A stretch of 64,000 nt of DNA from Acidobacteriota bacterium. GTDB lineage: Bacteria > Acidobacteriota > Thermoanaerobaculia > Gp7-AA8. The notes beneath the pieces were generated by a model. The model was not told where the DNA came from. It was given only the letters and a program-made list of their open reading frames with translations, and ran no database searches. The first letter of the stretch is position 1. Each line of letters begins with the position of its first letter. Position numbers and translations under genes: made by a program. Of the stretch, positions 12,160 through 46,893 are shown piece by piece. Location: positions 224,001-288,000 of the forward strand of contig JAFATB010000022.1 of NCBI GenBank assembly GCA_019244185.1, written 5' to 3'.

Positions 12160-13284
12160 ATGGCCATCCCGCTGCTCGACCTCAAACAGCAATACGCCGC
12201 GATCCGCGACGAGGCGCTCCGCGTCACCGCCGAGATCTACGAATCCCAGCTCTTCATCCTCGGCAAACGCGTCGACGACTTCGAGCGCGACTTCGCCGCC
12301 TACTGCACGACCAGGCACGCCGTCGGCGTCTCGTCCGGCACCGACGCGCTGCTCGAAGCGCTGATGGTGCTCGGCGTCGGACCGGGCGACGAAGTGATCG
12401 TCCCCGCGTACAGCTTCTTCGCCACCGCCGGCGTCGTGGCGCGGCTCGGCGCGATTCCCGTGTTCGTCGACATCACGCTCGACGACTACAACCTCGATCC
12501 CGCGCAGATCGAAGCGCGCATCACGCCGCGCACGAAAGCGATCATGCCGGTGCACCTCTACGGCCAGTGCGCGCCGATGGACGAGATCATGGCCATCGCG
12601 AACGCCCGCAACATTCCGGTCGTCGAAGACGCCGCGCAGGCGGTCGGCGCCGACTATCGCGGCAAACGCGCGGGCGCGATCGGCGCGATGGGCGCGTTCT
12701 CGTTCTTCCCGTCGAAGAACCTCGGCGCGTTCGGCGATGCCGGCGCGATCACGACCAACGACGACGAGCTCGCGGTGAAGCTCATCGACTATCGCGTGCA
12801 CGGCATGCGGCCGAAGTACTTCCATCACGTCGTCGGCGGCAACTTCCGCATCGACGCGCTGCAGGCGGCGATGCTCCACATCAAACTGCCGCATCTCGAG
12901 TCGTGGCACGACGGACGCCGCCGCAACGCGGAGCTCTATCGCCGCCACTTCGCCGCGACCAATGCGGGCGAGCGCGTCGTGCTGCCGGAAGAACTGCCGG
13001 GACGTCGCCACATCTACAACCAGTTCGTGATTCGCTTTCCAGAAGGCAGCGAAACGCGCGATCGCGTGATGGCGCATCTCAAGAGCGTGGCCATCGGCTG
13101 CGAGGTCTATTACCCGCTCACGCTGCCGCAGCAGGAATGCTTCCGCGACGTGCCGGGCGCGCATGACGCATATCCGAACTCCGACGCCGCGGCGGCGCAG
13201 ACGCTGGCCATTCCGATCTTCCCGGAGCTGACCGAAGCGCAGATCGCAGAAGTGGTGAGGGAGATCGTTCAGGGACTCGGATGA
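12160..13284 (+). CDS. DegT/DnrJ/EryC1/StrS PLP-dependent nucleotide-sugar aminotransferase
   Basis: SGTDAL, PVHLYGQ, EDAAQA, SFFPSKNLGAFGDAG. Confidence 0.95.
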   Translation: MAIPLLDLKQQYAAIRDEALRVTAEIYESQLFILGKRVDDFERDFAAYCTTRHAVGVSSGTDALLEALMVLGVGPGDEVIVPAYSFFATAGVVARLGAIPVFVDITLDDYNLDPAQIEARITPRTKAIMPVHLYGQCAPMDEIMAIANARNIPVVEDAAQAVGADYRGKRAGAIGAMGAFSFFPSKNLGAFGDAGAITTNDDELAVKLIDYRVHGMRPKYFHHVVGGNFRIDALQAAMLHIKLPHLESWHDGRRRNAELYRRHFAATNAGERVVLPEELPGRRHIYNQFVIRFPEGSETRDRVMAHLKSVAIGCEVYYPLTLPQQECFRDVPGAHDAYPNSDAAAAQTLAIPIFPELTEAQIAEVVREIVQGLG

Positions 13285-13976
13285 TTCCGATCCGCCACAC
13301 CATCGAGCGGACGAGGCCTCCGCTCGTCAACCGCGCGCTCGTTGCGGCGAACGTCGTCGTGTTCCTCGCGCAGCTCTTCATGGGCGACACGACCGAGCGC
13401 ATCATCCAGACGTTCGGCTTCATGCCCGCGCGCCTCGTCGATCCCGGCGCGTACGGTTACGCCGGCTGGGAAGTGTCGATCACGCTCTTCACGTCGCTCT
13501 TCCTGCACGGCGGTTTCGTGCATCTGATCGGAAACCTCATCTACCTCTGGGTGTTCGGCGGCGCGGTCGAGGACGCGGTGGGGCACTTCCGCTTTTTCCT
13601 GATGTACATCGCGTGCGGCGCGATCGGCAGTCTCACGCACACCGTGCTGTTCCCGCATTCCACCGTGCCGTCGATCGGTGCGTCCGGCAGTATTGCCGGA
13701 CTGCTCGGCGCCTTTCTGGTCTTACGGCCGCACGCGAAAATCGTGACGCTGTTCCCGCTCGTCGTTTATTGGGCGATGGCGGAGATTCCGGCGGTGCTCT
13801 TCCTGCCGGTGTGGTTCGGCATGCAGTTCTTCAACGGCTTCCTCGCGCTGCAGGCCGCGCGCGGCACGCAGGAAGTGGTCGGCATTGCGTGGTGGGCGCA
13901 CGTCGGCGGCTTTCTCTTCGGCGCGCTGCTGGCGGCGCTGTTCCGGCGCAACGATAGAATGCGCGCCCATGCGTAA
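13281..13976 (+). CDS. Rhomboid intramembrane serine protease
   Basis: [25 protein letters not shown]. Confidence 0.93.
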
Positions 13977-14841
13977 AGGTCTCATTCTCGCCGGAGGCTC
14001 GGGAACGCGCCTCTATCCGATCACCTCGGTCGTCTCGAAGCAGCTCCTGCCGGTGTACGACAAGCCGATGGTGTACTACCCGCTGACGACGTTGATGCTC
14101 GCCGGCATCCGCGAGTTCCTCATCATCACCACGCCGCAGGACCAGGCCTCGTTCATCAAGCTTCTCGGCGACGGCCATCAGTGGGGCATCGACATTCAGT
14201 ACGCCGTTCAGACCGCGCCGCGAGGACTCGCCGATGCCTTCATCGTCGGCCGCGACTTCGTCGGCGACGATCCGAGCTGTCTCATCCTCGGCGACAACAT
14301 CTTCTACGGCCACGGTCTGACGGATGGTCTGCAGCGCGCCGCCGCGCGCATCGAAGGCGCGACCGTTTTCGCGTATCGCGTGCAGGATCCCGAGCGCTAC
14401 GGCGTCGTCGACATCGACGCGGAGGGCCGCGCGCTGTCGATCGAGGAGAAGCCCGCGCAGCCGAAGTCGAATCTCGCCGTGACGGGTTTGTACTTTTACG
14501 ATCCGCAGGTCGTCGAGATCGCGGCGACGCTGCCGCCGTCGAAGCGCGGCGAGCTCGAGATCACCGACGTCAACCGCATCTATCTCGAGCGCGGCGCATT
14601 GCACGTCGAACAGCTCGGGCGCGGCTTCGCGTGGTTCGACACGGGAACGCAGGAGTCGCTGCTGGCCGCGTCGAACTTCGTGGCGACGGTGGAGATGCGG
14701 CAGGGACTGAAGATCGCCTGCCCCGAAGAGGTCGCCTACTTCATGGGCGCGATCGATGCCGACCGCGTCCGCGAGCACGCGGCGTCGTTGAAAAACAGTA
14801 CATACGGCCGGTATCTGCTCACCATCGCCAACGGGGAATAA
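13969..14841 (+). CDS. rfbA: Glucose-1-phosphate thymidylyltransferase
   Basis: [46 protein letters not shown]. Confidence 0.96.
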
Positions 14842-14860: not shown

Positions 14861-15991
14861 ATGGACGCGAGCATGTCCATCCCCCGGCGCGTCGTGGTTC
14901 TGGTCGCTGTCCTTCTGCTCGCCGCAGCGACGTTTGCGGTGCTCCTCGCGCCGCCGCGCTTCCTGCTGCGGAGCATCTCGGTGGCCAGCGCGGACCTGCT
15001 GCTGAGCGGCGCGAATCCGAACGACGGCCGCGTCGTCGCCGCGGGCAGGCGGTTCTTCAGCGCGTGGGTGCAGTCGTCGCTGGCGGCGTCCGTCGCCGAC
15101 CGCGTGGCCACGTCCGCACGCGATGAGGTCGCGCTCGGCCAGATCGTCGTGACGGTGCGCAACGCGATCATCAATCACGAGCAACTCGATCACGTCCCGA
15201 AGACGTGGCCGGCGCTGATCTCCGGACTCGGCTACTGCGACCAGATCAACGGCTCGGTCGCCGCCGTCGCCGCGCGCCGTTTCGGCCAGGCCGAGCTCTT
15301 CGCGTTGTACGACCGCAACGGACTGACGTCGCCGCATACGATCGGCCGTGTATGGTCGCCGCAGCGGAACGAATGGCTTTACTTCGACGCCTTCTACTCG
15401 GTGCCGATCGTCTTCACGAAAGACGCGCGGGGCCGCGCGCATTACGCGCGCGTCGACGGCGGCGTGCTGCCGTCGCGCGGCGTGCCGCTGTACTGGGAGT
15501 ACGACCTCTCCGGCTGGACGCTCTCGCGGTTCCGCGCGTCGTTCGCGGCGCAGGTCGTCGCGCGCGCGCGGCGTGAGGCGTTTGCGCCGCCGGCCGTCGT
15601 CGTTGCGGAAGCGGTCGCACGCGGCGGCGAAGCGGGCTTGCAGAAACCGCCGTCGTACTCCGCGGCCGTCGCGCAGCGCCGGTACGCGGGACCGCCGCCG
15701 TCCGCCGCGGCATCCGCGATCTGCTGCGGCTTCGACGCACCGCCGCCGCGTCGCGCGAGCGACGTGCGTCCTCCGGCGGCGGAAGTGCTCGAGCATCGCG
15801 ACGACGCGACGTACGAGCGCCTCGCGCGTGCCTTCGTCGAAGCGCGCTTTGACACGCTCACCGAAGGCGCGAACGTCGAGGCGTATCGCGCGATCGCCGA
15901 GGATCCGAGGGCAGAGCGGGATGACCGCGCGCGGCAGATTGCGCAGGTCGCGCGGAAGCTCGTCGGACAGATGGTGACGCAGCCGCAATGA
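14861..15991 (+). CDS. Membrane-anchored hypothetical protein with a putative transglutaminase-like Cys-His-Asp triad
   Basis: N-terminal TM; GLGYCDQIN ... PHTIGRV ... WLYFDAF. Start may be 14873. Confidence 0.6.
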
Positions 15992-17046
15992 CGAAGCGCG
16001 CGCTGGTCACGGGCATCACCGGGCAGGACGGTTCGTACCTCACCGAGCTTTTGCTCGAGAAAGGGTACGAGGTGCACGGCATCATCCGCCGTTCGTCCTC
16101 GTTCAACACGGGACGCATCGATCATCTGTATCAGGACGTCCACGATCCCGAGCGGAAGCTCTTCCTGCACTACGGCGACATGAACGACGCGTCGTCGCTC
16201 AACCGCGTGCTGCGCCTCTGCACGCCCGACGAGATCTACAACCTCGCCGCGCAGAGCCACGTGAAAGTGTCGTTCGAGACGCCGGAGTACACGAGCGAGA
16301 TCAACGCCGTCGGTCAACTGCGGCTGCTCGAGGCGATCCGCGAAGTCGACCTGCGTCCGCGCATCTACCAGGCGTCGTCGTCGGAGATGTTCGGCAGCTC
16401 GCCGTCGCCGCAGAGCGAGACCACGCCGTTCGCGCCGCGCAGTCCGTATGCGATCGCGAAGCTCGACGCGTACTGGATGACCGTCAACTACCGCGAGGCG
16501 TACGGCCTCTTCGCCGTCAACGGCATCCTCTTCAACCACGAGTCGCCGCGGCGCGGCGAGACGTTCGTCACGCGCAAGGTCACGCGCGCGGTCGGGCGCA
16601 TCGTGCACGGATTGCAGGACCGGCTGTACGTCGGCAACCTCGAGGCGCGGCGCGACTGGGGTTACGCGCGCGACTATGTCGAGGCGATGTGGCTCATGCT
16701 GCAGCAGTCCGAGCCCGACGACTACGTCGTGGCCACCGGTGAGTCGCACACCGTGCGCGAGCTGTGCGAGGTCGCGTTCGCGCGCGCCGGCTTCGCGCTC
16801 GAATGGAGCGGGGCGGGGGAGAAGGAGCGGGGGATCGACCGCACGTCGGGACGCACGCTCGTCGAGATCGATCCGCGCTACTTCCGTCCGACGGAAGTCG
16901 ACGATCTGCGCGGCGATGCGTCGAAAGCGCGGCGCGCGCTCGGCTGGTCGCCGCGCGTCACGTTCCGTGAGCTCATCGAAATGATGGTCGACTCCGATCT
17001 CGCCCTCGCCGAACGCGAGAAGCGCGCGAACGGAGACGGCGCGTGA
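15988..17046 (+). CDS. gmd: GDP-mannose 4,6-dehydratase
   Basis: [51 protein letters not shown]. Confidence 0.96.
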
Positions 17047-17996
17047 CGCTCTGGCCGGCGCGCCGCGTGCTGCTGACCGGCGCCGGCGGCTTTCTCGGCT
17101 CGCACCTGCGCGAGCGGCTCGAATCCCTCGGCGTCGCCGCGCTGTTCGCACCGCCGCGCGCCGAGCTCGATCTGCGCGACGGTGTCGCGGTCACGCGCTA
17201 TCTCGACGAGAAGCGTCCGAACCTCGTCATCCACGCCGCGGCGAACGTCGGCGGCATCGGCGCGAACCGCGCACACCCCGGCCAGTTCTTCCACGACAAC
17301 GCGCTGATGGGCATTCAGCTCATCGAAGCCTCGCGCCGTGCCGGCGTCGAGAAGTTCCTCTGCCTCGGCACCGTCTGCGCGTATCCGAAGTTCACGCCGC
17401 TGCCGTTCCGCGAGAGCGATCTGTGGAACGGCTATCCCGAAGAGACCAACGCGCCGTACGGCCTCGCGAAGCGCATGCTGCTCGTGCAGCTGCAGGCGTA
17501 CCGGCAGGAGTACGGCTTCAACGGCATCTACCTGCTGCCGGCGAATCTCTACGGTCCACGCGACAACTTCGATCTCGAGACCAGTCACGTCATTCCGGCG
17601 ATGATCCGCAAGTTCGTCGAAGCGGACGAAGAGAGCGCGCCGGTCGTCACGCTGTGGGGCGACGGCACGCCGACGCGCGAGTTTCTGCACGTCACCGACG
17701 CCGCCGACGCCGTGCTGCTCGCGGCCGAGCGGTACGACGGCGCGGAGCCGGTGAACATCGGCACCGGCGAGTCGGTATCGATCGCGCAGCTCGCCGATCT
17801 CGTCGCGGATGCCACCGGCTATCGCGGCCGGATCGAATGGAACGTCGCGCAGCCCGGCGGACAACCGAAGCGGCAGCTCGACACCACGCGTGCGCGGGAA
17901 GCGTTCGGTTTCACCGCGCGCGTGCGGCTCGCCGACGGGCTGCGGGAAGCGGTGGCGTGGTATAAAACGCGCCGCCCGCCGCGGCCCACGCCATGA
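17043..17996 (+). CDS. fcl: GDP-L-fucose synthase
   Basis: [40 protein letters not shown]; directly follows gmd. Confidence 0.92.
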
Positions 17997-19003
17997 AGAT
18001 TCTTCTCACCGGCGCCGCCGGTTTCATCGGGTTCCACGTCACGCAACGCCTGCTCGCGCGCGGCGACTCCGTCGTCGGCATCGACAACCTCAACGACTAC
18101 TACGATCCGTCGTTGAAGGACGCGCGTCTGGCGATGTTGCGCGAGTCGCCGCGGTTCACGTTCGAACGCGCCGACATCTCCGACACCGGCGCGGTGCTGC
18201 GACTCTTTGATATCCATCGACCCGAGCGCGTGGTCAACCTCGCCGCGCAGGCGGGCGTGCGCTACTCGCTCATCAATCCGCACGCGTACACGCAGAGCAA
18301 CGTCAGCGGATTTCTGAACATCCTCGAAGGCTGCCGCGCGACGAACGTCGAGCATCTCGTGTACGCGTCGTCGAGCTCCGTCTACGGTGCGAACACGCGC
18401 CAGCCGTTCGCCGAAGACGACAACGTCGATCATCCGGTGTCGCTGTACGCCGCGACGAAGAAGGCGAACGAGCTGATGGCGCATACGTACTCGCATCTCT
18501 TCGGCGTGCCCACCACCGGCCTGCGCTTCTTCACCGTGTACGGTCCGTGGGGGCGCCCCGACATGGCGCTCTTCAAGTTCACGCGCGGCATCCTCGAAGA
18601 GACGCCGATCGAGGTCTACAACGAAGGCCGCATGGTGCGCGACTTCACGTATGTCGACGACGTCGCGGAAGGCGTCGTGCGGGTGCTCGATCATGTCGCC
18701 GCGCCCGATCCCGACTTCGATCCCACGCAGCCGCGCCCGTCGCGCAGCCGCGCGCCGTATCGCGTCTTCAACATCGGCAACAACCGGCCGGTGCAGCTCC
18801 TCGACTACATCCACGTCCTCGAAGAGTGCCTCGGGAAGAAAGCAAGGATGGAACTGCTTCCGATGCAGCCGGGAGACGTGCCGTCGACGATGGCCGACGT
18901 CTCGCAGCTCGAGGAAGCGGTCGGCTTCCGGCCCGTCACCAGCGTCCGCGACGGCGTGGCCGCGTTCGTGGCGTGGTACAAAAACTACTATCGGATCCCC
19001 TGA
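17993..19003 (+). CDS. NAD-dependent epimerase, UDP-glucuronate 4-epimerase-like
   Basis: [45 protein letters not shown]. Confidence 0.92.
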
Positions 19004-19041: not shown

Positions 19042-20385
19042 ATGTCCATCCAGGAGCAAGTCGCAGGAACGGCGCTGCTCGATCGTTTCCTCGAGGCGGT
19101 CGATGCGCGGACGGCGCGCGTCGGCGTGATCGGCCTCGGCTACGTCGGGCTGCCGCTCGTGCTGCTCTACGCCGACGGCGGCTTTCCGGTGATCGGCTTC
19201 GACGTCGACGCGAAGAAGACCCGCGCGCTCAACGCCGGCGAGTCGTACATCCGCCACATCGGCGTCGATCGCATCCGCTCCGCGTTCGCGCGCGAGCAGG
19301 TCGAGGCCACCACCGACTTCGACCGCCTCGCCGAATGCGACGCGATCATCATCTGCGTCCCGACGCCGCTCGGCGCGCATCGCGAGCCCGACCTCGACTA
19401 CATCCGCGCCACCTCCACCGAAATCGCGAAACGCCTGCGCACCGGACAACTGGTGGTGCTCGAATCGACGACCTATCCCGGCACCACGCGCGAGGAACTG
19501 CTCGCGCCGTTCGAAGCGCGCGGACTCGCGTGCGGCCGCGACTTCTTCCTCGCGTTCTCGCCCGAGCGCGAAGATCCGGGCAACGAGCGCTTCAACACGC
19601 GCACGATCCCGAAAGTCGTCGGCGGCATCGACGAGCCGTCGCTGCGCGCCGCGAAGGCGCTCTACTCGACCGTCATCAACACCGTCGTTCCTGTCTCCAG
19701 CGCCGAAGTCGCGGAGTCGTCGAAGCTGCTCGAGAACATCTTCCGCGCCGTGAACATCGCGCTCGTCAACGAGATGAAGATCGTCTTCGAGCGGATGGGC
19801 ATCGACGTCTGGGAAGTGATCGAGGCCGCGCGCACGAAGCCGTTCGGCTTCATGCCGTTCTATCCCGGCCCCGGACTCGGCGGCCACTGCATTCCGCTCG
19901 ATCCGTTCTATCTCACGTGGAAAGCCGCGGAGTACGGGACGTGGGCGCGCTTCATCGAGCTTGCGGGCGAGGTGAACACCGCCATGCCGCGCTACGTCGT
20001 CGACCGCACGGTCGAAGCGGTGAACGCCGCGGGCCGCAGCATCGTCGGTGCGCGCGTGCTCGTCCTCGGCCTCTCGTACAAGCCGGACATCGACGACGAC
20101 CGCGAGTCGCCGTCGTTTGAGCTCATCGAGCTGCTGCAGGAGCGCGGCGCGGACGTCGCGTATTGCGACCCGTACATCCCCGAGGCGCGACGAGGGCGCA
20201 AGCACGACCTGGGATTGCATTCGGTGCCGTGCACGGCGGAAGAGTTCGGAACGTACGATGCGGTCGTCGTGTCGACGCCGCACAGCCAGTTCAAGGATGC
20301 GGCGCTGTGGTCCAACGTGCGCGTCGCGGTCGATACGCGAAACATCGTGCCGCGGGACACGGCGACGCGCGTCATTCGCGCGTAG
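19042..20385 (+). CDS. UDP-N-acetylhexosamine/UDP-sugar 6-dehydrogenase (WbpA/WecC family)
   Basis: GLGYVGLP, CVPTP, ESTTYPGTT, SPER, GGHCIPLDP; ATG 19042 follows GGAG. Confidence 0.92.
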   Translation: MSIQEQVAGTALLDRFLEAVDARTARVGVIGLGYVGLPLVLLYADGGFPVIGFDVDAKKTRALNAGESYIRHIGVDRIRSAFAREQVEATTDFDRLAECDAIIICVPTPLGAHREPDLDYIRATSTEIAKRLRTGQLVVLESTTYPGTTREELLAPFEARGLACGRDFFLAFSPEREDPGNERFNTRTIPKVVGGIDEPSLRAAKALYSTVINTVVPVSSAEVAESSKLLENIFRAVNIALVNEMKIVFERMGIDVWEVIEAARTKPFGFMPFYPGPGLGGHCIPLDPFYLTWKAAEYGTWARFIELAGEVNTAMPRYVVDRTVEAVNAAGRSIVGARVLVLGLSYKPDIDDDRESPSFELIELLQERGADVAYCDPYIPEARRGRKHDLGLHSVPCTAEEFGTYDAVVVSTPHSQFKDAALWSNVRVAVDTRNIVPRDTATRVIRA

Positions 20386-22773: not shown

Positions 22774-22814
22774 GACACGGGTCTCCAACGATCGCCTCTG
22801 AAATCCACGTGCCA

Positions 22815-22828
22815 GTGACATGCGTCAC
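22815..22828. promoter_or_regulatory. CRP/FNR-type palindrome GTGA-N6-TCAC
   Basis: GTGACATGCGTCAC in the divergent intergenic region. Confidence 0.5.
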
Positions 22829-24914: not shown

Positions 24915-24930
24915 CAACCGGGTTCAACAC

Positions 24931-27258: not shown

Positions 27259-27268
27259 GGTGACCCTG

Positions 27269-38346: not shown

Positions 38347-38360
38347 GTGACGCGCGTCAC
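38347..38360. promoter_or_regulatory. CRP/FNR-type palindrome GTGACGCGCGTCAC between divergent -10 boxes
   Basis: TATACT on - (38325-38320) and TAGACT on + (38381-38386) flank it almost symmetrically. Confidence 0.55.
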
Positions 38361-38418
38361 GGGCCACTTCTTTTTGCTGGTAGACTGGAAAAAATTCGAC
38401 GCGCGATGCCCTGACCCC

Positions 38419-40089
38419 ATGTTCATCGACTTTCTCCGTCTGCTGGCTCTCCCTCTTGCCGGCATCGCGCTTTTCCTCCTTTACCGCTTCACGGAATCCG
38501 GCGACAGGCGGATTTCCATCCTCGTCGCCGCCGGCTTTTTGTCGCGCGCGCTCGTCGGCCAGGCGCTCTTCTGGATCTCGTATCTCCGCCTTCCGGTGGG
38601 CCGCAGTCTACAAATCGGAGAAGGGCTCTGGTTTTTTGCCCAGGACGGCGTGATGTACGCGGGAACCGCGACCGCCGCCGCCCAACACGGCCTCGACGCG
38701 ATTCTGCGCATGTTCCGCGGCACCTCGTCCGTGTCGTACGTGCAGACCCTGTCGCTCTTCACGCTGCTCTTCGGGAACGCGGTCTCGGTGTCGCTGCTCC
38801 TCAACCTCTTCTGCTATGCCGCCACGTGCGCGATCCTCGTCCGCTGGGCCGAGGCCGTGCCGTCGACGCGGCAGGCCGTGCTGCTGGCGATCGCGGCAAT
38901 CAGCCTCTCACCGGCCGGCATCCTCTGGTCGTTTCAGCCGCTCAAGGAATCGTTCTTCCAGTTTCTCGTGATCGGCTTCGTCGCTGCGTGTTTCCTCTGG
39001 CAGCGCGCGTGGCGCACCGGCGGTCCGTCCGCGAGAACGCTCCTCGGCGCGGCAGCGGCGATGTTCGCGACCTGCTATCTCGCGAGCGGCGTCCGCTGGT
39101 ACATCGGGCTGGCGCTCCTTCTCGCGGCCGCGCTCTTTCTGATGCTCGTCGCGCTCGGCGTGCGCGCGCGCAAGGTGGCTGCGTTCGCCAGCGCTCTCGT
39201 CGTCATCTTCGTGCTGACGCGCACGTTCCTCTTCGCCGCGGACGCGTACGTGCCGCCCGTGATGGCGCGCGCGCTGCGCTTCAATCTCACCTCTGCCGCC
39301 GACGTGCCGAGCGACGTCGAGCGTTACGTCGAGGCGACCCGGAGCGGTTTCGAGCGGACGGGCGGTAAGACGGCGATCCGCACGACCGCGGCGCCGCCGC
39401 CGGTACCTCCACCCACGCGCGCCTCTGTGAACGCACCGCCGAGCCCGCCCGCGGCCTTGACGCCGGTTGCAACGACTGCGGCGACGTCTACGAGGTCCAC
39501 CACGGTCGCCACGACGAGCGCGAATGCGCCGAGCCCGGTGCCCGCTCCGAAACCCGCCACACCGCCCACGACGGTGGCGACGAACGCCAAACCCGCGGTC
39601 ACCGCCACCGCGACCTCCGAGGCGAAGCCGACCGTCGTCGTTTTCTACGTCCCGCGGCGCGTTCCTGAATCGCGCGCGCGTCGTCTGCTGTCGGGCGCCG
39701 CCGCTGCCGCGCTGCCGCGCACGATCGGCGAGCGCCTCGGCCTCGTGAACATCGGCTCGAGCGCGCACGGCGCGTTCTGGCTGTTCGTCGACGTCGACAC
39801 GCTCTTCTTCGATCTGGTGCTCCTCGCCGCCGGCGCGAGCGTCTTCCTCGGATTTCGCAACGGCTGGTATCGCAACGCGCTCTTCTGGCTCGTGCTCGTG
39901 CTGACGCTCGTCACCGGCGTGCTGCTCGTCTATACGGTCACGAACTTCGGCACGCTCTTCCGCTTGCGGGCGATGATCTTCAACACGCTCGTGCTGCTCC
40001 CGCTCGCCGTCGCCACGGTTCCCGTGCGGGAGCCGGACGCGCTGCCCGAGCCGGCCGCCGGAGGAGCCCTGAGCACGGAGCAGGCTTGA
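38419..40089 (+). CDS. Polytopic membrane protein (Wzy/GT-C-like) with a long Pro/Thr/Ala-rich loop
   Basis: About 11 TM segments; FFAQDG..Y, LKES, TNFGTLFRLR; low-complexity insert at ~39385-39630. Confidence 0.65.
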   Translation: MFIDFLRLLALPLAGIALFLLYRFTESGDRRISILVAAGFLSRALVGQALFWISYLRLPVGRSLQIGEGLWFFAQDGVMYAGTATAAAQHGLDAILRMFRGTSSVSYVQTLSLFTLLFGNAVSVSLLLNLFCYAATCAILVRWAEAVPSTRQAVLLAIAAISLSPAGILWSFQPLKESFFQFLVIGFVAACFLWQRAWRTGGPSARTLLGAAAAMFATCYLASGVRWYIGLALLLAAALFLMLVALGVRARKVAAFASALVVIFVLTRTFLFAADAYVPPVMARALRFNLTSAADVPSDVERYVEATRSGFERTGGKTAIRTTAAPPPVPPPTRASVNAPPSPPAALTPVATTAATSTRSTTVATTSANAPSPVPAPKPATPPTTVATNAKPAVTATATSEAKPTVVVFYVPRRVPESRARRLLSGAAAAALPRTIGERLGLVNIGSSAHGAFWLFVDVDTLFFDLVLLAAGASVFLGFRNGWYRNALFWLVLVLTLVTGVLLVYTVTNFGTLFRLRAMIFNTLVLLPLAVATVPVREPDALPEPAAGGALSTEQA

Positions 40090-40931
40090 GCGCGACCGGC
40101 GGCAACATCGACGAGCAGGTCGTCCGCGGCTTCGGCGACGAATGGACGCGCTTCGATCAGTCCGCGCTCTCCGACGCGGAGCTGCGCGCGATGTACGACC
40201 CGTACTTTGCGATCTTTTCGTGGGACGCGCTGCCGCACGACGCCGCCGGCTTCGACGCGGGCTGCGGCACCGGACGCTGGGCGCGCTTCGTCGCGCCGCG
40301 CGTCGGACGCATTCTCTGCGTCGACGCGAGCGAGGACGCGCTGAACGTCGCGCGCCGCAATCTCGCGTCATCGCGCAACGCGGAGTTCGTCCACGCGCCG
40401 ATCGAGCGCATGCCGATCGCCGATGCCTCGCTCGACTTCGGCTACTCCCTCGGTGTGCTGCATCATCTGCCCGACACCGCCGCCGCGATCCGCACGTGCG
40501 TCGCGAAGCTGAAGCCGGGCGCGCCGTTCCTCATCTATCTCTACTACGCGTTCGACAACCGGCCGCTCTGGTTCAAAGCGATCTGGCGCGCGTCGGAGCT
40601 CATCCGCACGACGGTCTCGCGCCTGCCGCACGCGCTGCGTTACGCGATCAGCCAGCTGCTCGCCGCCGTCGTGTACTGGCCGCTCGCGCGCCTCGCACGG
40701 CGCCTCGAGCGCGCGGGCAAGAACGTCGCGAACTTCCCGCTCGCGTACTACCGCGACCGCAGCTTCTACGTGATGCGCAACGACGCGCTCGACCGCTTCG
40801 GCACGAAGCTCGAGCAACGCTTCACGCGCGCGCAGATCGAACGGATGCTGCGCGACGCGGGTCTCGAGCGCATCCGCTTCAGCGATGCCGCGCCGTACTG
40901 GTGCGCGGTCGGCTTCCGCGGCGTCAGTTGA
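40086..40931 (+). CDS. Class I SAM-dependent methyltransferase
   Basis: FGDEW, FDAGCGTGRW, GVLHHLPD, LKPG. Confidence 0.88.
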   Translation: MSATGGNIDEQVVRGFGDEWTRFDQSALSDAELRAMYDPYFAIFSWDALPHDAAGFDAGCGTGRWARFVAPRVGRILCVDASEDALNVARRNLASSRNAEFVHAPIERMPIADASLDFGYSLGVLHHLPDTAAAIRTCVAKLKPGAPFLIYLYYAFDNRPLWFKAIWRASELIRTTVSRLPHALRYAISQLLAAVVYWPLARLARRLERAGKNVANFPLAYYRDRSFYVMRNDALDRFGTKLEQRFTRAQIERMLRDAGLERIRFSDAAPYWCAVGFRGVS

Positions 40932-42855
40932 ACGACTGAGGAACAGCCCGGTGGTGGGAGGCGATGACGAGCTTCTCGTCCACCGGCACGATGGGCGGCG
41001 CGGGGATGTCGGTGTCGCGCGACGGCAGCACCCAACCGAGCTCCGAGTCGGCGACACGCTCGATCTCCAGCGAGAGGCGCTTGACGGGCGCGCCGGCAGT
41101 CTCGCATTCGGCAAGGATGGCGCGTACCTTCAGATTCGGCAGCGCCTGCGTGGAGAGGAACACCTCGTCCGCGCGCGTGCGGCGCACGAGCTCGGCGAGC
41201 GGCTCGCGTCCCGAATGCACTGGCAGTCCGTGCATGACCTTGCCGGCCTTCCGCGGATCGTCGTCGACGAACGCCACCGGCAGGTAGCCGAGCTCCGTGT
41301 TGTTCGTCAGCTCGCGCCACAACAGCTCGCCGCCGTCGCCCGCGCCGTAGATCAGCACGCGCTTGCCGGTGCGCGCGTGCGGCACGCCAAGGGAGCGGCG
41401 GAGCAGGCGGAACGCGAAGCGGCTGCCGGTGAGGAACATCAGCAGCAGCAGCGCGTCGAGCACGAACGCGGTGCGCGAGAAGCCGTCGAAGCGGAACGCG
41501 AAGACGACCAGCACGAGCGTGGCCACCGAGCTCACCGACACCGCTTTGCTGAACAACACGACGTCCGACATACCCGCGTACTTCCAGAGGCCGCGATAGA
41601 CGCCGACGGCGAGGAACGTCGCCAGCTTGATGAAGACGATCGCCGGCAGCGTCTTGAGGAAGAGCTGCCAGTCGGGAGAGCCGGTGCGCGCGGTGCCGAA
41701 GAGCATGCGGTACGACGCGTAGTAGGCGAGCACGATCAGCACGACGTCGAGCGCGACCTCGAAGATGCGCCGCTTGTACGAGAGATCGACGAGGAAGGCC
41801 ACGAGCGGTTTCTGCTGCGCCGCAGAGATCTCGGTTTCGCTGTAGACGCGGACGCCGCCGAGGTAGACGCCGAGGATGCCGAGGACGATCGCGAAGCCGG
41901 CGATCGTGGCCATGCTCACGTCGAGGTCCATGCGCCGCACGGACACCGCCAGCGCGCCGCCGAGGATCGCGAAACCGTAGAGCATCCACACCGCTTTCCG
42001 TTCGGAGAGACCGAGCGCGACGAGACGGTGCGAGGTGTGATCGCGGCCGCCCTGCGACGCCGCGCGTCCGGCCAGCTTGCGCATCAGCGTCACGAACGTC
42101 GTGTCGAAGATGGGGATGCATAGCACGAGCACCGGCACCGCGAGCACGGCCAGAACGCTGCGCGAGCGTCCGCCGCCGCCGCTCTCGGCCATCAGCGCCG
42201 TGCTGGCCAGGAAGAAGCCGACGAACATCGAGCCGCAGTCGCCCATGAAAATCGACGCGGGGTTGTGGTTGTAGATGAGGAAGCCGCCCAGCGCGCCGAA
42301 GAACGCCGACAGCATCAGCGCCTCGGTGAACTGCCCGTTGAGGAAGAAGTTCGTCGCCAGCGACAGCGCCGCGATCGCCGCGACGCCGGCCGAGAGGCCG
42401 TCCATGTTGTCCAGCATGTTCACGGCGTTCGTCACGCCGACCAGCCAGAAGAACGTGATGATCATGTTCAGCACGAACGAGCCGGTCCACGGCAGCACGA
42501 GGCCGAAGTAGACGACCGCGGACGCGCCGAGCAACTGCCCGATCAGCTTCTGGTAGGGCTTGAGATGGAGGAAGTCATCGATGAGACCGACCGCGAACAG
42601 CGCGGAGCTCGCGGCGATGACGACCCAGCTCTGCCTCGTGTGCGGTGCGATGACGACCGTGGAGATCGTGGCGAGGTAGATCGCCACGCCGCCCATCATC
42701 GCCGTCGGCTTGCGGTGCCAGCGGTCTTTCTTCGGAGCCGCGACCGCGCCGATGCGCCGCGCGAACGCGCGTACCGCGGGCGTGACGAGCACGGCGGCCA
42801 GAAACGCCGCCAGCGCCGTGGCGACGATCGTCGTCATGGTGGTCGGGAAGATCAT
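40924..42855 (-). CDS. WecA/MraY-family undecaprenyl-phosphate sugar-1-phosphate transferase fused to a TM plus Rossmann-like (CapD N-terminal-like) domain
   Basis: GLIDD, NAVNMLDNMDGL, IFMGDCGS, DHTSHRL; then VLIYGAGDGG, FVDDD. Confidence 0.85.
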   Translation of the reverse strand: MIFPTTMTTIVATALAAFLAAVLVTPAVRAFARRIGAVAAPKKDRWHRKPTAMMGGVAIYLATISTVVIAPHTRQSWVVIAASSALFAVGLIDDFLHLKPYQKLIGQLLGASAVVYFGLVLPWTGSFVLNMIITFFWLVGVTNAVNMLDNMDGLSAGVAAIAALSLATNFFLNGQFTEALMLSAFFGALGGFLIYNHNPASIFMGDCGSMFVGFFLASTALMAESGGGGRSRSVLAVLAVPVLVLCIPIFDTTFVTLMRKLAGRAASQGGRDHTSHRLVALGLSERKAVWMLYGFAILGGALAVSVRRMDLDVSMATIAGFAIVLGILGVYLGGVRVYSETEISAAQQKPLVAFLVDLSYKRRIFEVALDVVLIVLAYYASYRMLFGTARTGSPDWQLFLKTLPAIVFIKLATFLAVGVYRGLWKYAGMSDVVLFSKAVSVSSVATLVLVVFAFRFDGFSRTAFVLDALLLLMFLTGSRFAFRLLRRSLGVPHARTGKRVLIYGAGDGGELLWRELTNNTELGYLPVAFVDDDPRKAGKVMHGLPVHSGREPLAELVRRTRADEVFLSTQALPNLKVRAILAECETAGAPVKRLSLEIERVADSELGWVLPSRDTDIPAPPIVPVDEKLVIASHHRAVPQSFN

Positions 42856-42952: not shown

Positions 42953-43918
42953 TCAGATGCGCTCGGAGTGGTAGGCGATGACCTGCTGAAGGATGCCGTC
43001 GAGTTTCGTCTTCGGCTGAAAGCCCACGAGCTTGCCGATCTTGCCGATGTCGGGCACGCGGCGCGGCATGTCCTCGAAGCCTTCCTCGTACGCCTCGCTG
43101 TACGGGATGTGCACGATCTCGGAAGTCGAGCCGGTGAGCTCGCGGATGCGCTCGGCGAGCTGGCCGATCGAGATCTCCTCGTTCGAGCCGATGTTGAAGA
43201 CCTGGCCGACGGCATCGTCGTGGTCCATGAGCCCCATCAGCGCGCCGACGACGTCGCCGACGTAGCCGAAGCAGCGCGTCTGCGTGCCGTCGCCGTAAAC
43301 CGTGAGCGGCCGTCCGGCGAGCGCCTGTTTGACGAGCGTCGGAATGACCATGCCGTACTGCCCCGTCTGCCGCGGGCCGACGGTGTTGAAGAGGCGCACG
43401 ACGATCGTGGGCAGCTTCTTCTCGCGCCAGTAGGCGAGGGCGAGGAACTCGTCGATCGCTTTCGAGCACGCGTAGCTCCAGCGCCCTTTCGTCGTCGCAC
43501 CCATGACGAGGTTGCCGTCTTCGCGAAACGGGACCTGCTCGCTGAGGCCGTAAACCTCGGACGTCGACGCGACGAGCACTTTCTTCTTCTTCTTGTTCGC
43601 CGCGGCGAGGACGATCTCCGTGCCGCGCACGTTCGTCTCGATGGTGCGCACCGGGCTCTCGACGATCAGCTTCACGCCGACGGCGGCCGCGAGATGGAAG
43701 ACGACGTCGCAGGTGTCGACGAGCTCGGCGAGCACGGGATAGTTCTGCACCGAGTCGATCGTGTAGTGAAAGCGCGGGTTGCGCTTGGCCTGCTGGATGT
43801 TGTCGATGCTGCCGGTGGAGAGGTCGTCGATGATGAAGACCTCGTCGCCGCGCTCGAGATACGCATCGGCGAGATGCGATCCGATGAACCCTGATCCGCC
43901 CGTGATGAGAACTCGCAA
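42953..43918 (-). CDS. NAD-dependent nucleotide-sugar epimerase/dehydratase (extended SDR)
   Basis: TTG start after AGGAG; ITGGSGFIG, HLAAAVG, ASTSEVYG, YACSK, RLFNTVGPRQ. Confidence 0.9.
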   Translation of the reverse strand: MRVLITGGSGFIGSHLADAYLERGDEVFIIDDLSTGSIDNIQQAKRNPRFHYTIDSVQNYPVLAELVDTCDVVFHLAAAVGVKLIVESPVRTIETNVRGTEIVLAAANKKKKKVLVASTSEVYGLSEQVPFREDGNLVMGATTKGRWSYACSKAIDEFLALAYWREKKLPTIVVRLFNTVGPRQTGQYGMVIPTLVKQALAGRPLTVYGDGTQTRCFGYVGDVVGALMGLMDHDDAVGQVFNIGSNEEISIGQLAERIRELTGSTSEIVHIPYSEAYEEGFEDMPRRVPDIGKIGKLVGFQPKTKLDGILQQVIAYHSERI

Positions 43919-43920
43919 TG

Positions 43921-45165
43921 TCACTCCTGGGTGTTGGCTCGCGGATGCACCCGGAGCTCTCGGTATAGCCGGATTATATCGGCGACGAGCCGGTCCTTCG
44001 AATACGTCGCGTGCGCGAATGCTTTGCCGCGCTCCGAGAAGCGCGCGCGCAACGCTGCATCCGTCGCAAGCCGCCGCAAGCCCGCCGCGAAGCCGCGCTC
44101 GTCGTTCGACGCCGCGGTGACGCCGCGCTCGCGGATCTCGTATGCGACGCCGTCGCGTTCGACGCGCTCTTCGATGCGGCCGAGCACGTCGACGACGCCG
44201 CCCACCGCGGTGCTGATCGCCGGGAGGCCCGCGGCGAGCGCCTCGATGAGCGTGAGCGGCGTGCCTTCGTTCAGCGACGTCAGCGCGGCGATGTCGATCG
44301 ACGCGTAGATCTCGTCGATCGTGCGCGTGCCGGCGAACTCCATCCGCGCGCCGAGGCCGAGCTCCCGCGCGCGACGCTCGAGCGCGACGCGCTCGCTGCC
44401 GTCGCCGTACGCGACGAAACGCAGCGATGCGTCCGCGAGCGCGGCGGCGACGCGGAGAAAGAGCTCGTGGTTCTTGATCGGCGCGAGCCGGCCGACAATT
44501 CCGGCGACCAGCGGCTCGTGCTGATGCGGCGGCACATCGCACGACGTGAGATCGAGTCCGAGCGGAATGACGCGGAACTGCTCCGCGCGGCCCACGCCGA
44601 AGGTCTCGTGAATCTCGCGCCGCTGCTGGTCGCTGATCGTGACGATGACGTCGGTCGTGAATCGCGCGAGCAGTTTCTCGATCGTGAGGAACACGCGCGT
44701 CTTCAACCGGCCGTAGTAGCTGTGGAAGACGTGGCCGTGAAACGTGTGCACGAAGCGCACGCGGCGCGGGCGTCCGATGAGCGTGCCGGGCGTGAGCCAG
44801 CGATAGAGCCAGCCCGCGATGCGGCCCGCGGTCCCGGCTTTGGCGGTGTGCGTATGGATGATGTCGGGGCGGAAGCGCTTGAAAAAGCGGAAGAGCTTCA
44901 CGACCGTCACGAGGTCGCGCGGCGAGATCTCGCGGCTCATCTCCGGGATCACGACCGGCGCGACGCCGTGCGCGTGCGCGAACGCGCTCATGTCCTCTTC
45001 GCCGGGCGGCACGATGCCGGTGATGAGCGCGGTCTCGAATTCGCCGTGCGACGCCGCGGGCGCCAGCGCTTCCGACAGCCAGACCACGTGGCGCGCGGGA
45101 CCGCCGACGTTGAGCCGCGCGATGATGCGCGCGATGCGCAGCGGCCGCGGCTCAGCGCGGCGCAC
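43921..45165 (-). CDS. Glycosyltransferase family 4
   Basis: IIARLNVGGPA, HTHTAKAG, HTFHGH, GRLAPIKN, SLNEGTP..LIEA. Confidence 0.9.
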   Translation of the reverse strand: MRRAEPRPLRIARIIARLNVGGPARHVVWLSEALAPAASHGEFETALITGIVPPGEEDMSAFAHAHGVAPVVIPEMSREISPRDLVTVVKLFRFFKRFRPDIIHTHTAKAGTAGRIAGWLYRWLTPGTLIGRPRRVRFVHTFHGHVFHSYYGRLKTRVFLTIEKLLARFTTDVIVTISDQQRREIHETFGVGRAEQFRVIPLGLDLTSCDVPPHQHEPLVAGIVGRLAPIKNHELFLRVAAALADASLRFVAYGDGSERVALERRARELGLGARMEFAGTRTIDEIYASIDIAALTSLNEGTPLTLIEALAAGLPAISTAVGGVVDVLGRIEERVERDGVAYEIRERGVTAASNDERGFAAGLRRLATDAALRARFSERGKAFAHATYSKDRLVADIIRLYRELRVHPRANTQE

Positions 45166-45643
45166 GAAGCCGTTCCTGCACGCGCCGCAGCACTTCCTCC
45201 GACTGGATGATCTCGAGGACGTTCGAGCGGAAGCGCGCGGCGGTGGCGTAGTTCTCGGCGGCATCGTCGGTGCGGCCGAGGCGCACGTCAGCGTCGCCGA
45301 TGGCGACGTAGAACTCCGGACGGCGATCGATCTTCAGCGCGTCCTGCATCACCGGAATGATCTCGTCGTAGCGGCCGAGGCGATCGAGCGTTGCGCCGAT
45401 CATCGTGTACGCGCGCGGCTCGGTGGGGCAGCGGTCGCGCAGCGCATAGAGGTCGGTGAGGTTCTCGCGCGCCATCGCCGTCGCGGCCACGTCGTCCTTC
45501 ATGTCGAGCATCGTCGCGGTGCGGTTGCGGAGATCGGTCACCATGAGATCGCATGCGTACGGCGCGTAAACCCAAACGCGAAACGCGTACACGCAGAACG
45601 CCGCCACGGCGGTGACGATCGCGATGCGCGCGATGCGACTCAC
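45152..45643 (-). CDS. Membrane-anchored TPR protein
   Basis: GTG start overlaps the ligase stop; N-terminal TM then TPR-like helices (AY..IG..L..LGRYDE; IGDA..RLGRTDDA..Y). Confidence 0.7.
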   Translation of the reverse strand: MSRIARIAIVTAVAAFCVYAFRVWVYAPYACDLMVTDLRNRTATMLDMKDDVAATAMARENLTDLYALRDRCPTEPRAYTMIGATLDRLGRYDEIIPVMQDALKIDRRPEFYVAIGDADVRLGRTDDAAENYATAARFRSNVLEIIQSEEVLRRVQERLRAPR

Positions 45644-46893
45644 AACTCGCTCCAGCCGGCCAGCAGCGCGCCGAACGAGACGATGAGCTCCCGCGTCACC
45701 GCGACCTGCAACGGAAACTGCGCGAGACAGAGCACGAGCAGCGTGCCCCCGAGCGGCAGCGCGACGCGCGCGGCCAAACGCGTGCGCGCGTGGTCGAGCG
45801 TCGTCACGCGCCGAGCGGTGAAGACGATCGCGATCACGATCGCGAGGAACAGCGCGTAGCCGACGACGCCCGTCTCCGCGAGCGTCTGCAGATGATCGTT
45901 GTGCGTCTCGCCGAAGTTCGTGCCGCTCTGCTCGACGAGCGACGGCGGATACCGCTGCTCGACGCGCACGATGTACGGCATGTAGTGGTACTTGTACGTG
46001 CCCGGCCCCATGCCGGTGAGCGGCCGGTCGCGCGTCATCTCGATCGCGGCGAGCGCCGCCGACACGCGCTCGGACGCGACGACGTTGAGCTGCCCCTGCG
46101 CGATCGCGCGCGGCACCGCGATGAGCGAGGTCACGGCGCGCATGTGCAGCGCGAGCGCGAGTCCGAGTGCGAGCGCGAGTCCGGCCACGAGCAGCAGCGC
46201 GCGCTTCCACGAGCGGCCGATGCTGATCAGCACGACGCCGGCCGCGAGTCCGACGACGGCCGTGCGCGTCTGCGAGAACAGCACGCCGCCCGCGCCGGCG
46301 ATCGCACCGCACGCGTAGAGCCACCGACGCACGCCCGGCACTTCGATCGCCGCGACGATGAGGATCACGACGTTCAGCGCGAGGAACGTCCCGACGATGT
46401 TCGGGTTGCCGAGGCACGCCGTCGCGCGCATGTGCATCGGCATCCGCGGCGAGACCGTGAACGGATTCCAGCGCCCGGTCTCCTGCAGAAAGGCGAGCAT
46501 CGTGTTGAGCACGGTCGCGGGCACGAGCACATCGATCATCACGAGGCCGATCGCGCGCGCGCCGTACCAGACCGTGAGAAAGACGAGCGCCGCCGCGATC
46601 CACGTGACCAGCACCGGCACGCTCAGCAGACGGTTCGTCGAGATGAGCGTCGTGAATGAGATCCAGACGATGCCCGCCGCGATGATGCCGAGGAGCTCAC
46701 GGCGCCGCGCCAGCGTCCGCAACCGCTCGCGATCGCCGAACGTGGCCGCGATCGTGAGCAGCAGCAACCCGAGGAGCGCCTCGGTGCGCATCGCCGATTC
46801 TTTGATCGTGCGGAAGCGGTCGATCTGATCGGCGGCGACGATGAACGGCACGAGCGCAACGCCCGCCACGGCCAGCGTCGCCGCGGCGTTCAC
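45640..46893 (-). CDS. O-antigen ligase / O-oligosaccharyltransferase family protein (Wzy_C)
   Basis: LGNPN, SQTRT, PLTGMGPG, THNDHLQ..AETG; start uncertain. Confidence 0.85.
   Translation of the reverse strand: MNAAATLAVAGVALVPFIVAADQIDRFRTIKESAMRTEALLGLLLLTIAATFGDRERLRTLARRRELLGIIAAGIVWISFTTLISTNRLLSVPVLVTWIAAALVFLTVWYGARAIGLVMIDVLVPATVLNTMLAFLQETGRWNPFTVSPRMPMHMRATACLGNPNIVGTFLALNVVILIVAAIEVPGVRRWLYACGAIAGAGGVLFSQTRTAVVGLAAGVVLISIGRSWKRALLLVAGLALALGLALALHMRAVTSLIAVPRAIAQGQLNVVASERVSAALAAIEMTRDRPLTGMGPGTYKYHYMPYIVRVEQRYPPSLVEQSGTNFGETHNDHLQTLAETGVVGYALFLAIVIAIVFTARRVTTLDHARTRLAARVALPLGGTLLVLCLAQFPLQVAVTRELIVSFGALLAGWSEL

Follow-up and report, generated by a model that had tools for sequence, protein, structure and literature searches.

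SLH and CWB2 modules of Gram-positive bacteria act in threes, are carried by proteases, amidases and glycosidases, and are often encoded near glycopolymer genes. The C-terminal domains of type IX secretion system (T9SS) cargo are β-sandwiches on secreted proteases with Ig- or PKD-like domains and are attached to anionic lipopolysaccharide (A-LPS), an anchor glycan whose synthesis involves a Wzx/Wzy/WaaL pathway, a DegT-type aminotransferase and uronic-acid chemistry. Here we describe a domain of about 125 residues, the C-terminal domain (CTD), encoded by five adjacent genes inside a glycan locus of a soil bacterium of the Acidobacteriota (Thermoanaerobaculia; Gp7-AA8; assembly GCA_019244185.1, contig JAFATB010000022.1, positions 224,001-288,000 of the forward strand). 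We call this whole 64,000-nt stretch the window; all coordinates refer to it, and the locus studied runs from 12160 to ~47094. We document the identity of the domain, its fold, the clustering of its genes, their synteny, and their presence or absence across relatives. With a probability that we put at about 0.6, the CTD is a trimerising tip on Sec-exported enzymes and its gene cluster is a variable cargo block, the last gene of which is probably co-transcribed with glycan genes.

The CTD family has the same fusion partners as SLH and CWB2 modules and, like them, occurs in multiples of three; it differs in that their folds are unrelated to its jelly-roll, the host here has two membranes and binding by the CTD is putative. 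Like the A-LPS pathway, this locus encodes a DegT protein, a sugar dehydrogenase and an amidotransferase. Unlike the T9SS domains, the CTD here is longer, is not restricted to the C terminus and is abundant in phyla without a T9SS, and the T9SS tail models PF18962, PF13585 and TIGR04183 did not match the five CTD proteins. TIGR04183 had no match in the genome and was silent in the control genomes too, and SprA_N likewise gave 0 matches in the genome and 0 in the control genomes. The locus also recalls the PEP-CTERM/exosortase exopolysaccharide loci: its AsnB protein best matches an XrtA-associated amidotransferase model (TIGR03108, the best in NCBIfam; 593 bits, cut-off 816.9), and its GT4 and Wzy_C proteins weakly match exosortase-associated models, all below the cut-offs. 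Unlike those loci, it has no PEP motif or membrane helix in the CTD, and an exosortase-like gene lies on another contig (C10:203 kb). Its plan is that of a Wzx/Wzy O-antigen or exopolysaccharide cluster, with a WecA-like gene, sugar-nucleotide genes, glycosyltransferases, a MOP-fold gene and Wzy_C, and with conserved flanks around a species-variable middle, except that six secreted-protein genes are embedded in that middle. The product may be a lipopolysaccharide (LPS) O-antigen, a protein-linked glycan or a capsule. As a glycan locus it is unremarkable, and the interest lies in the domain family. The sole clear structural match to the CTD is the tip of the Bd2133 'MAT' fibre of Bdellovibrio bacteriovorus, which has been described as a trimerising β-sandwich (PMC10769870). 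Unlike the Bd2133 tip, the CTD here follows enzymes and Ig or PKD domains rather than a β-helix fibre; it can also make up a whole protein, and in other phyla it is repeated in tandem triples.

Genes were chosen by third-position G+C (the window has a G+C content of ~67%) together with family searches against Pfam and NCBIfam. CTD1 to CTD5 lie on the plus strand at 22882-34323; all five proteins start with signal-peptide-like sequences, and each ends in one alignable domain of ~125 aa. The genes that carry the domain, and the spacer between two of them, are as follows.

22882..24816, plus strand: CTD1, with signal peptide, metzincin protease (HELGHGIGWRH), Ig_7 and the CTD at 24412-24813
24895..27258, plus strand: CTD2, with reprolysin-like metzincin (HELGHNVGSQH; PF13688 E 2.3e-14), PKD_6, Ig_7 and the CTD at 26854-27255; ATG 24931 is the likely start
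27260..27718, plus strand: CTD3, a signal peptide and a bare CTD, 1-10 bp past the CTD2 stop
27732..30938, plus strand: CTD4, with NHL β-propeller repeats (PF01436 E 1.3e-28, PF25021 E 1.4e-33), PKD_6 and the CTD at 30534-30935; 27810 is the likely start
30939..31203, no strand: mosaic spacer of copied pieces (blastn)
31204..34323, plus strand: CTD5, a paralogue of CTD4
60500..63001, minus strand: sixth CTD gene of the window, with GSDH (glucose/sorbosone dehydrogenase), PKD and the CTD, 13 kb beyond the glycan locus

The domain is recognised by a fixed motif order (PCR..DTR ... G.CG.P ... N.T ... DVTGY[FY][QK]-stop) with 24 invariant columns. A hidden Markov model (HMM) of the CTD matched nine open reading frames (ORFs) in the 5.3-Mb genome; because five of the nine fall within this 11.5-kb stretch and a sixth, at 60500-63001, within the same window, the clustering is not due to chance. 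A preliminary description of the locus had placed five co-directional CTD genes between asnB and a membrane gene starting 18 bp past the last CTD stop, and both the coordinates and the HMM confirm this arrangement; it had missed one gene, at 22336-22821 on the minus strand, between asnB and CTD1. No Pfam or NCBIfam model covers the CTD in the five proteins or in 28 multi-domain homologues, and none of the 120 listed among the 797 short homologues of CTD3 carries a precomputed Pfam domain; the family is thus without a model in the sense of these two collections, and as it is nameless the literature was not searched by name. The five genes would give Sec-exported proteins: a pair of metzincin proteases, a bare domain and a pair of NHL β-propellers.

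An AlphaFold2 model of the bare CTD (CTD3), built on 49 sequences, is an eight-stranded jelly-roll with no membrane helix and a predicted local distance difference test score (pLDDT) of 90.5. When this model was compared with 48,161 representative PDB chains, only two reached Z >= 8, both of them the Bd2133 tip (8OND and 8OK3; Z 9.9 and 9.7, root-mean-square deviation 2.7-2.8 over 104-106 residues), and Foldseek agreed (E 6.3e-4). The next Z was 7.5, and carbohydrate-binding modules (CBMs), nucleoplasmins and capsid jelly-rolls filled the range of 6-7.5. Sequence identity to the tip is 11-13% in the structural alignments, and a search of PDB sequences with the CTD profile did not find Bd2133, returning 8wac alone (E 0.36). 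A viral fold library yielded weak jelly-roll matches (TM score 0.45-0.53), a few of them named as tail-fibre, tail-collar or C1q-like proteins.

Modelled as a homotrimer, CTD3 scored an ipSAE of 0.96 vs 0.06 for the best of three controls, and three runs gave a contact agreement of at least 98% with a partner pLDDT of at least 95. The predicted interface takes in residues 33-36 (PCR), 76-82 (the N.T strand), 111-121 and 143-149 (DVTGYFQ), and because it holds the invariant motifs, the conservation that defines the family would be explained by subunit packing. The CTD is predicted from these models to assemble as a trimer, and the last ~125 residues of each protein would form an eight-stranded jelly-roll that trimerises in the manner of the Bd2133 fibre tip.

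The family extends well beyond this genome. A CTD profile run against 1.84 billion representatives returned 25,873 matches at E <= 1e-3, with named sources in Thermoanaerobaculia, Bryobacterales, Streptomyces, Kitasatospora, Acidimicrobiales, Limnocylindrales and Dormibacteria; it thus spans Acidobacteriota, Actinomycetota and Chloroflexota and is abundant in the single-membrane Actinomycetota. Close homologues carry the name Thermoanaerobaculia. Fusion partners include subtilases, kumamolisin, M10, GH16, GH18, CAP, SpoIID, VanY, Amidase_2, PQQ propellers and sortase. Among the best 150 of the 25,873 matches, 129 proteins had three CTD stretches, 10 had six and 2 had nine, with four in 6 and five in 3; multi-copy proteins tend to rank high in such a list, which inflates the number of triples, but this bias does not explain the preference for multiples of three. 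Tandem arrays of 3, 6 or 9 copies, the usual form in other phyla, would be built-in pseudo-trimers. The CTD is single-copy and C-terminal in this class, and therefore three chains would have to come together.

These anatomical data bear on a different view of the domain, in which it is a sorting or secretion tag of the T9SS, PEP-CTERM or rhombosortase kind that is processed by the nearby rhomboid or by a sortase-like enzyme. The CTD does occupy the extreme C terminus of all five proteins, behind Ig_7 or PKD_6, as in T9SS cargo, and a rhomboid gene is present in the locus. It is, however, a folded 125-aa domain without a membrane helix, and elsewhere in the same genome it stands at the N terminus (an ORF on contig C23) or in tandem (an ORF on contig C26), with internal placement also seen and with CTD3 consisting of nothing else. 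No Por_Secre_tail, CHU_C or PEP-CTERM model matches, and the abundance of the family in single-membrane Actinomycetota also speaks against a tag. We rejected the tag on domain anatomy (positions, fold and bare form); its rhombosortase version because the TIGR03902 match, at 21 bits, falls short of the cut-off of 84 and because a congener without CTD genes, G023, keeps the rhomboid, still adjoining degT; and its PEP-CTERM version because the C termini end DVTGYF[QK] within a folded β-domain and have no hydrophobic helix. We consider any such tag very improbable.

The bare form of the domain is strongly conserved, with 62-93% identity among aligned short homologues, which argues that the domain has a function of its own. 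We compared 73 acidobacterial CTD loci by tblastn with the window proteins and found 14 CTD3-like copies at least 73% identical; 12 of them lie directly 3' of a larger gene's CTD, a thirteenth comes after another bare copy and the last is at a contig edge. Pairs of a bare and a large CTD gene also occur at two loci where no glycan gene was detected (L072 and L077). The tightest conserved linkage is therefore that of CTD genes among themselves, which suggests mixed trimers: the bare-CTD gene that follows a large CTD gene would probably supply partner chains. Judged by gene order, trimers mixing the bare CTD with the CTD of a large protein are a tentative proposal, to which we give rather less than even odds.

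The CTD cluster would form a variable cargo block within a conserved Wzx/Wzy-type surface-glycan locus that extends from tyrS-degT to Wzy_C-rodZ. The remaining genes of this locus are listed below.

12160..13284, plus strand: DegT/EryC1-type sugar aminotransferase, left end of the locus (PF01041 E 4.6e-118); orthologues are 79-84% identical in congeners, CTD-bearing or CTD-less
13281..13976, plus strand: rhomboid intramembrane protease (PF01694 E 4.9e-31)
13975..14841, plus strand: RmlA glucose-1-phosphate thymidylyltransferase (TIGR01207 483 bits, cut-off 360.65); the ORF opens at 13885 and the family match begins at residue 31
14861..15991, plus strand: 376-aa protein with one N-terminal membrane helix (one hydrophobic segment) and no Pfam or NCBIfam match
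15988..17046, plus strand: GDP-mannose 4,6-dehydratase Gmd (TIGR01472 569 bits, cut-off 415)
17043..17996, plus strand: GDP-fucose-synthase-like (Fcl-like) short-chain dehydrogenase/reductase (SDR) (NF047922 290 bits, below the cut-off of 500; PF01370 E 1.8e-59)
17993..19003, plus strand: NAD-dependent sugar epimerase/dehydratase (PF01370 E 3.5e-58)
19114..20385, plus strand: nucleotide-sugar 6-dehydrogenase, start approximate (TIGR03026 421 bits, cut-off 189.8)
20395..22386, plus strand: AsnB-type glutamine amidotransferase (PF00733 E 7.8e-123)
22336..22821, minus strand: 161-aa Cys-rich secreted protein, divergent from CTD1, with a signal-peptide-like N terminus and no Pfam match
34342..35556, plus strand: 404-aa multi-pass membrane protein (9 hydrophobic segments by hydropathy scan), likely of MOP-superfamily (Wzx-like) fold
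35570..36214, plus strand: methyltransferase, 13 bp 3' of the MOP gene (PF08241 E 5.2e-9)
36121..37314, plus strand: GT-B (GT1/GT4-like) glycosyltransferase (PF13692 E 2e-9); ATG 36211 is the likely start, overlapping the methyltransferase stop
37349..38287, minus strand: secreted right-handed β-helix protein (PF13229 E 5.8e-11) with a signal-peptide-like N terminus
38347..40089, plus strand: 580-aa membrane protein with 12 hydrophobic segments and a Pro/Thr/Ala-rich loop, with a GT-C-like lead
40086..40931, plus strand: class I S-adenosylmethionine-dependent methyltransferase (PF08241 E 1.1e-19)
40924..42855, minus strand: WecA/MraY-family polyprenyl-phosphate N-acetylhexosamine-1-phosphate transferase with a CoA_binding_3 region (PF00953 E 1e-33, PF13727 E 7.8e-16)
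42953..43915, minus strand: SDR sugar epimerase/dehydratase (PF01370 E 5.2e-51), 86-90% identical in congeners
43921..45264, minus strand: GT4 glycosyltransferase (PF00534 E 1.5e-26, PF13439 E 1.8e-20)
45640..47094, minus strand: Wzy_C-family membrane protein (PF04932 E 9.1e-18), true start probably near 46893

These genes suggest a pathway with WecA-like initiation, precursors of the 6-deoxy-hexose, amino-sugar and probably amidated uronic-acid kinds, and methyltransferases. The C-terminal half of the WecA/MraY transferase resembles the N-terminal membrane and CoA_binding_3 part of WbaP/WcaJ-type transferases, an unusual fusion. The families of the WecA-like transferase, the GT4, the methyltransferases, the amidotransferase and the rhomboid had been named in the preliminary description, and Pfam and NCBIfam agree with it on each. 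Its WaaL- or O-oligosaccharyltransferase (O-OTase)-like ligase does belong to the Wzy_C family (PF04932), in which ligase, polymerase and O-OTase roles are not separable by sequence here. As it had also reported, no Wza or Wzc export genes are visible in the window: Poly_export (Wza, PF02563) has no match there, the genome's single match being on contig C4, and the Wzz and Wzc families match none of the 53 window ORF translations scanned.

Its other assignments hold in part. The Wzx-like flippase at 34342-35556 matches no Pfam or NCBIfam model, Polysacc_synt included, even at E <= 5, and one orthologue matches PF01943 at E 0.011, below the cut-off. Its nearest ESM Atlas clusters carry Polysacc_synt (score 0.99), and a structure model (pLDDT 62, predicted TM score 0.60) gave Foldseek matches of which all those listed are MATE, WzxE or MurJ proteins (on this pLDDT-62 model, best E 2.1e-5; TM score to WzxE 0.49-0.56). 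The genome's two canonical Polysacc_synt genes lie on other contigs, and hhalign comparison of the MOP alignment with them gave probabilities of 1.2% and 0.2%, which at Neff 1.7 are uninformative. A MOP fold is thus likely on the structural comparisons, and a flippase function would follow from that fold. The supposed Wzy- or GT-C-like gene at 38347-40089 has TgpA_N as its sole Pfam match (E 0.0054) and a GT-C lead from ESM Atlas, where it falls among PMT_2/GT39/ArnT clusters (score 0.96-0.97, TM score 0.57/0.67, flagged 'under the bar'). A gene called transglutaminase-like is probably that at 14861..15991, and what stands behind the name is sub-threshold: Transglut_core at E 6.9e-4 (20.3 bits, cut-off 23) in the orthologue at L031, and the TgpA_N match just mentioned, which was also counted.

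Our sample of relatives comprised 41 genomes: the organism's own (G000), 24 congeners and 16 others of the class. Its tallies take in the unpublished genome G030, and that of Wzy_C also the unpublished G002 and G024. The CTD was found in 13 of the 41, and the MOP-fold gene in only five, which are the richest in CTDs (G000, G004, G005, G008 and G022). CTD genes are syntenic with asnB and glycan genes in six further genomes of the genus. By tblastn, a block consisting of the small 161-aa gene and a trio of CTD1, CTD2 and the bare CTD (metzincin, metzincin, bare CTD) lies 3' of asnB at L065, L066, L067, L068 and L086, so a synteny test set beforehand passes in five related loci plus the window. 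Homologues of the 161-aa gene occupy the same place in every trio-bearing locus at 54-64% identity (39% at L045); as pure speculation, the protein could be a protease inhibitor or a metzincin partner. The methyltransferase at 35570..36214 travels with the CTD block, and on the contigs of G004, G005, G008 and G022 the MOP gene is followed by methyltransferase, glycosyltransferase and β-helix genes. The MOP gene is within 100 bp of a CTD gene in three genomes and within 4 kb in a further two; in G022 the two are on separate contigs. There (L056:514-2103 and 4003-4782, both minus; G022:C381), ORFs judged by eye to be an IS200/RayT-like transposase and an HTH-S24 repressor stand just upstream of the MOP orthologue, where other genomes have CTD genes. 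At L086 the CTD block is kept and the MOP gene is replaced by other genes. Extra CTD genes lie between rhomboid/rmlA and gmd in two congeners (L031/L095 and L040).

Three congeners, G014, G015 and G023, have neither a CTD gene nor a copy of the MOP-fold membrane gene. In all three the frame tyrS-degT-rhomboid ... wecA-SDR-GT4-Wzy_C-p305-rodZ-dnaJ-PP2C is retained and encloses sugar genes; asnB and wecA are direct neighbours in G014. Because CTD-less congeners keep this frame, we take the glycan locus as the core and the CTD block as part of its variable middle. In another CTD-less congener, G011, two homologous metzincins (L059:497-4353, minus) adjoin fcl-gmd, and their C-terminal module is a different one, FN3-like with three repeats of ~35 aa behind it that share an 'HI..LR..VN' motif. 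Such modules seem to be exchangeable on the same passenger.

Beyond the gene inventory, it had been proposed that the CTD binds the glycan of this locus or that the Ser/Thr-rich CTD proteins are its acceptors. For either idea we found no direct support and some counter-evidence. The acceptor idea would have the CTD proteins O-glycosylated in the periplasm by the Wzy_C protein, as a PglL-like O-OTase, or by the GT-C-like protein. Ser plus Thr make up 17-21% of the five CTD proteins vs 6-13% of cytoplasmic neighbours, an N-x-T motif is invariant across the five CTDs, and the Wzy_C and GT-C-like (PMT_2/GT39 lead) genes are both in the locus. The enrichment is real but not special, as the neighbouring secreted β-helix protein reaches 19.6%, and high Ser/Thr content is usual for secreted β-rich proteins. 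The Wzy_C gene occurs in 32 of the 41 genomes, including 24 of 24 congeners whether CTD-bearing or not, and GT-C-like homologues are present in the CTD-less G014, G015 and G023. Since genomes have the candidate transferases irrespective of their CTD genes, glycosylation becomes less likely, and we regard it as improbable, although less so than a sorting tag.

The binding idea amounts to a lectin-like anchor. Here the CTD trimer would bind the glycan made by this locus and so tether the proteases and propellers to the outer surface, as SLH and CWB2 modules do with secondary cell-wall polymers (SCWPs). The CTD block is syntenic with asnB and glycan genes at the five loci named above; in other phyla the CTD is fused to enzymes of types that commonly bear wall- or glycan-binding modules (Amidase_2, SpoIID, VanY, GH16, GH18, subtilases and sortase); its jelly-roll resembles those of CBM6/22/35/36 at Z 6-7, a range that the tool calls common; and the conserved bare CTD points to a function of its own. 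The N-terminal domain of BC2L-C, a TNF-like trimeric fucose lectin, shows that bacterial lectins can be built as trimeric jelly-rolls (PMC3164656). This locus encodes a GDP-6-deoxyhexose (fucose-type) branch, which recalls the sugar of BC2L-C by analogy only, and BC2L-C is not among the listed fold matches of the CTD.

Beyond the genus, CTD clusters are interleaved with glycan loci of other kinds. In G038, of another family, contig C23 has 8 CTD matches at 44-85 kb among epimerases, methyltransferases, GT1 and GT2 glycosyltransferases, an ABC-2 permease-ATPase pair and GT9, with LpxC upstream. In the unpublished genome G030, of a third family, 4 CTD genes on contig C77 adjoin a MurJ-like flippase, methyltransferases, a GT4 and AsnB. 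Both clusters include GSDH-CTD genes like that at 60500-63001. Both cases speak for a genuine relation of CTD clusters to glycan loci.

The wider counts point the other way. Four of the nine CTD genes of the genome lie outside the locus, one of them 13 kb past it in the window and three on other contigs, among chemotaxis, sulfatase, RHS, pentose-phosphate and DUF11 genes and with no glycan genes within about 10 kb. Among the 73 acidobacterial CTD loci, 12 match at least one of 14 glycan queries, and 8 of these 12 are the shared genus locus. Outside it, 4 of 65 CTD loci (6%) have a glycan match vs 12 of 250 20-kb windows drawn at random from this genome (4.8%), a rough test, since tblastn with 14 window proteins can miss unrelated glycan genes and many CTD loci are shorter than 20 kb. 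In five genomes, almost no CTD gene is within 10 kb of a GT1 match (PF00534) apart from the G038:C23 island, with 5 such matches at 55.7-89.7 kb; this count is descriptive only, as clustered genes and fragmented contigs make a poor statistical test. The CTD family as a whole is not tied to glycan loci. Furthermore, the CTD3-like copies remain at least 73% identical despite different or no glycan neighbours, which is unexpected for a lectin specific to one glycan type, and the conserved residues lie in the predicted subunit interface. As a side observation, the genome has a second glycan locus (G000:C26:282-303 kb), in which gmd, asnB and a sugar dehydrogenase gene are accompanied by several GT4 genes and by a Polysacc_synt flippase of canonical type; no CTD gene lies near it. 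That the trimer tip docks on the glycan of its own locus, which would keep the enzymes on the cell surface, is in our judgement plausible but rather unlikely, and we rate the lectin-like anchor at about the same level. The fuller proposal, that the CTD is the docking module of an undescribed Acidobacteriota surface-display system in which mixed trimers bind a cognate O-antigen-type glycan through their tip and flippase and tailoring genes travel along, we consider unlikely.

Linkage could also arise without function, if the CTD block rides in a recombination-prone, serotype-specific variable region and has no interaction with the glycan. The cluster does contain traces of rearrangement. In the spacer at 30939-31203, nt 1-88 match 34324-34411 (97.7%), that is, the 18-bp spacer and the first 70 nt of the MOP gene; nt 104-200 match 27569-27667 (90%), an internal piece of CTD3; and nt 215-265 match 27758-27809 (86.5%), the upstream region or leader of CTD4. 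We read this mosaic, on its sequence, as the scar of a tandem duplication. The last ~500 nt of CTD4 (30440-30938) and CTD5 (33825-34323) are 94-99% identical, as compared with ~70-78% upstream, which points to recent gene conversion of the PKD_6 and CTD end. Along with these scars, the transposase-like ORF upstream of the MOP gene in L056, the trio at L086 that stays while the MOP gene is replaced, the different C-terminal module of the G011 metzincins beside fcl-gmd, and the location of most CTD genes elsewhere all suit mere co-residence. Against it stand the close, operon-like packing of CTD5 and the three genes that follow it (MOP, methyltransferase and glycosyltransferase), the recurrence of CTD genes inside three different glycan-locus types, and the extra CTD genes between rhomboid/rmlA and gmd in two congeners. 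We view linkage without function as unlikely, on a par with the full display system.

The spacing also suggests how the cluster may be transcribed. CTD5 stops at 34323 and the MOP gene starts at 34342, an 18-bp gap that is followed by a 13-bp gap and then by an overlap. Terminator-like GC hairpins with T-runs occur at 27745-27766 (plus), just 3' of CTD3, and at 37326-37299 (minus), between the convergent glycosyltransferase and β-helix genes; the search was a consensus scan only, with 6 sites in the region vs 10.0 expected from shuffles. These two hairpins suggest the transcription units [CTD1-3], [CTD4] and [CTD5-MOP-methyltransferase-glycosyltransferase]. On its spacing, CTD5 is probably co-transcribed with the three genes that follow it.

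Returning to the trimerising tip and its cargo block, several points weigh against this reading, in addition to the ranking bias and the commonplace level of the CBM matches already mentioned. The trimer is a model result and not a measurement. In the calibration behind the 0.96 mark, 20 of 30 solved one-chain pairs attained it, as did 1 of 23 solved single chains; that calibration was made on two copies rather than three, and the solved Bd2133 trimer could have contributed to the pass from the model's memory. The Bd2133 tip has no known ligand. The mixed-trimer idea comes from gene pairing, while the trimer model covers the homotrimer alone. The syntenic relatives are kin that share one ancestral locus and are not independent, and one of the two examples from outside the genus, G030, is an unpublished genome. 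Finally, the structure model behind the MOP call is of low confidence (pLDDT 62), and comparison of profiles did not support the call.

Elsewhere in the window, at 1717-5900 on the minus strand, two large ORFs of 709 and 783 aa have coding-like composition and no Pfam family. A literature search on Thermoanaerobaculia together with O-antigen found nothing.

The sole clear solved relative of the CTD is thus the adhesive fibre tip of a predator. A trimerising and possibly glycan-docking module would explain the assembly, and perhaps the surface retention, of many secreted enzymes of little-studied soil bacteria. The fuller display system, which we consider unlikely, would if real parallel SLH/SCWP or CWB2/PSII (polysaccharide II) display in a host with two membranes, and it would assign a role to >25,000 sequence clusters of a family that Pfam and NCBIfam do not model. 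The bare 150-aa form, fixed after a larger CTD gene, offers a simple and expressible object on which these ideas can be tested.

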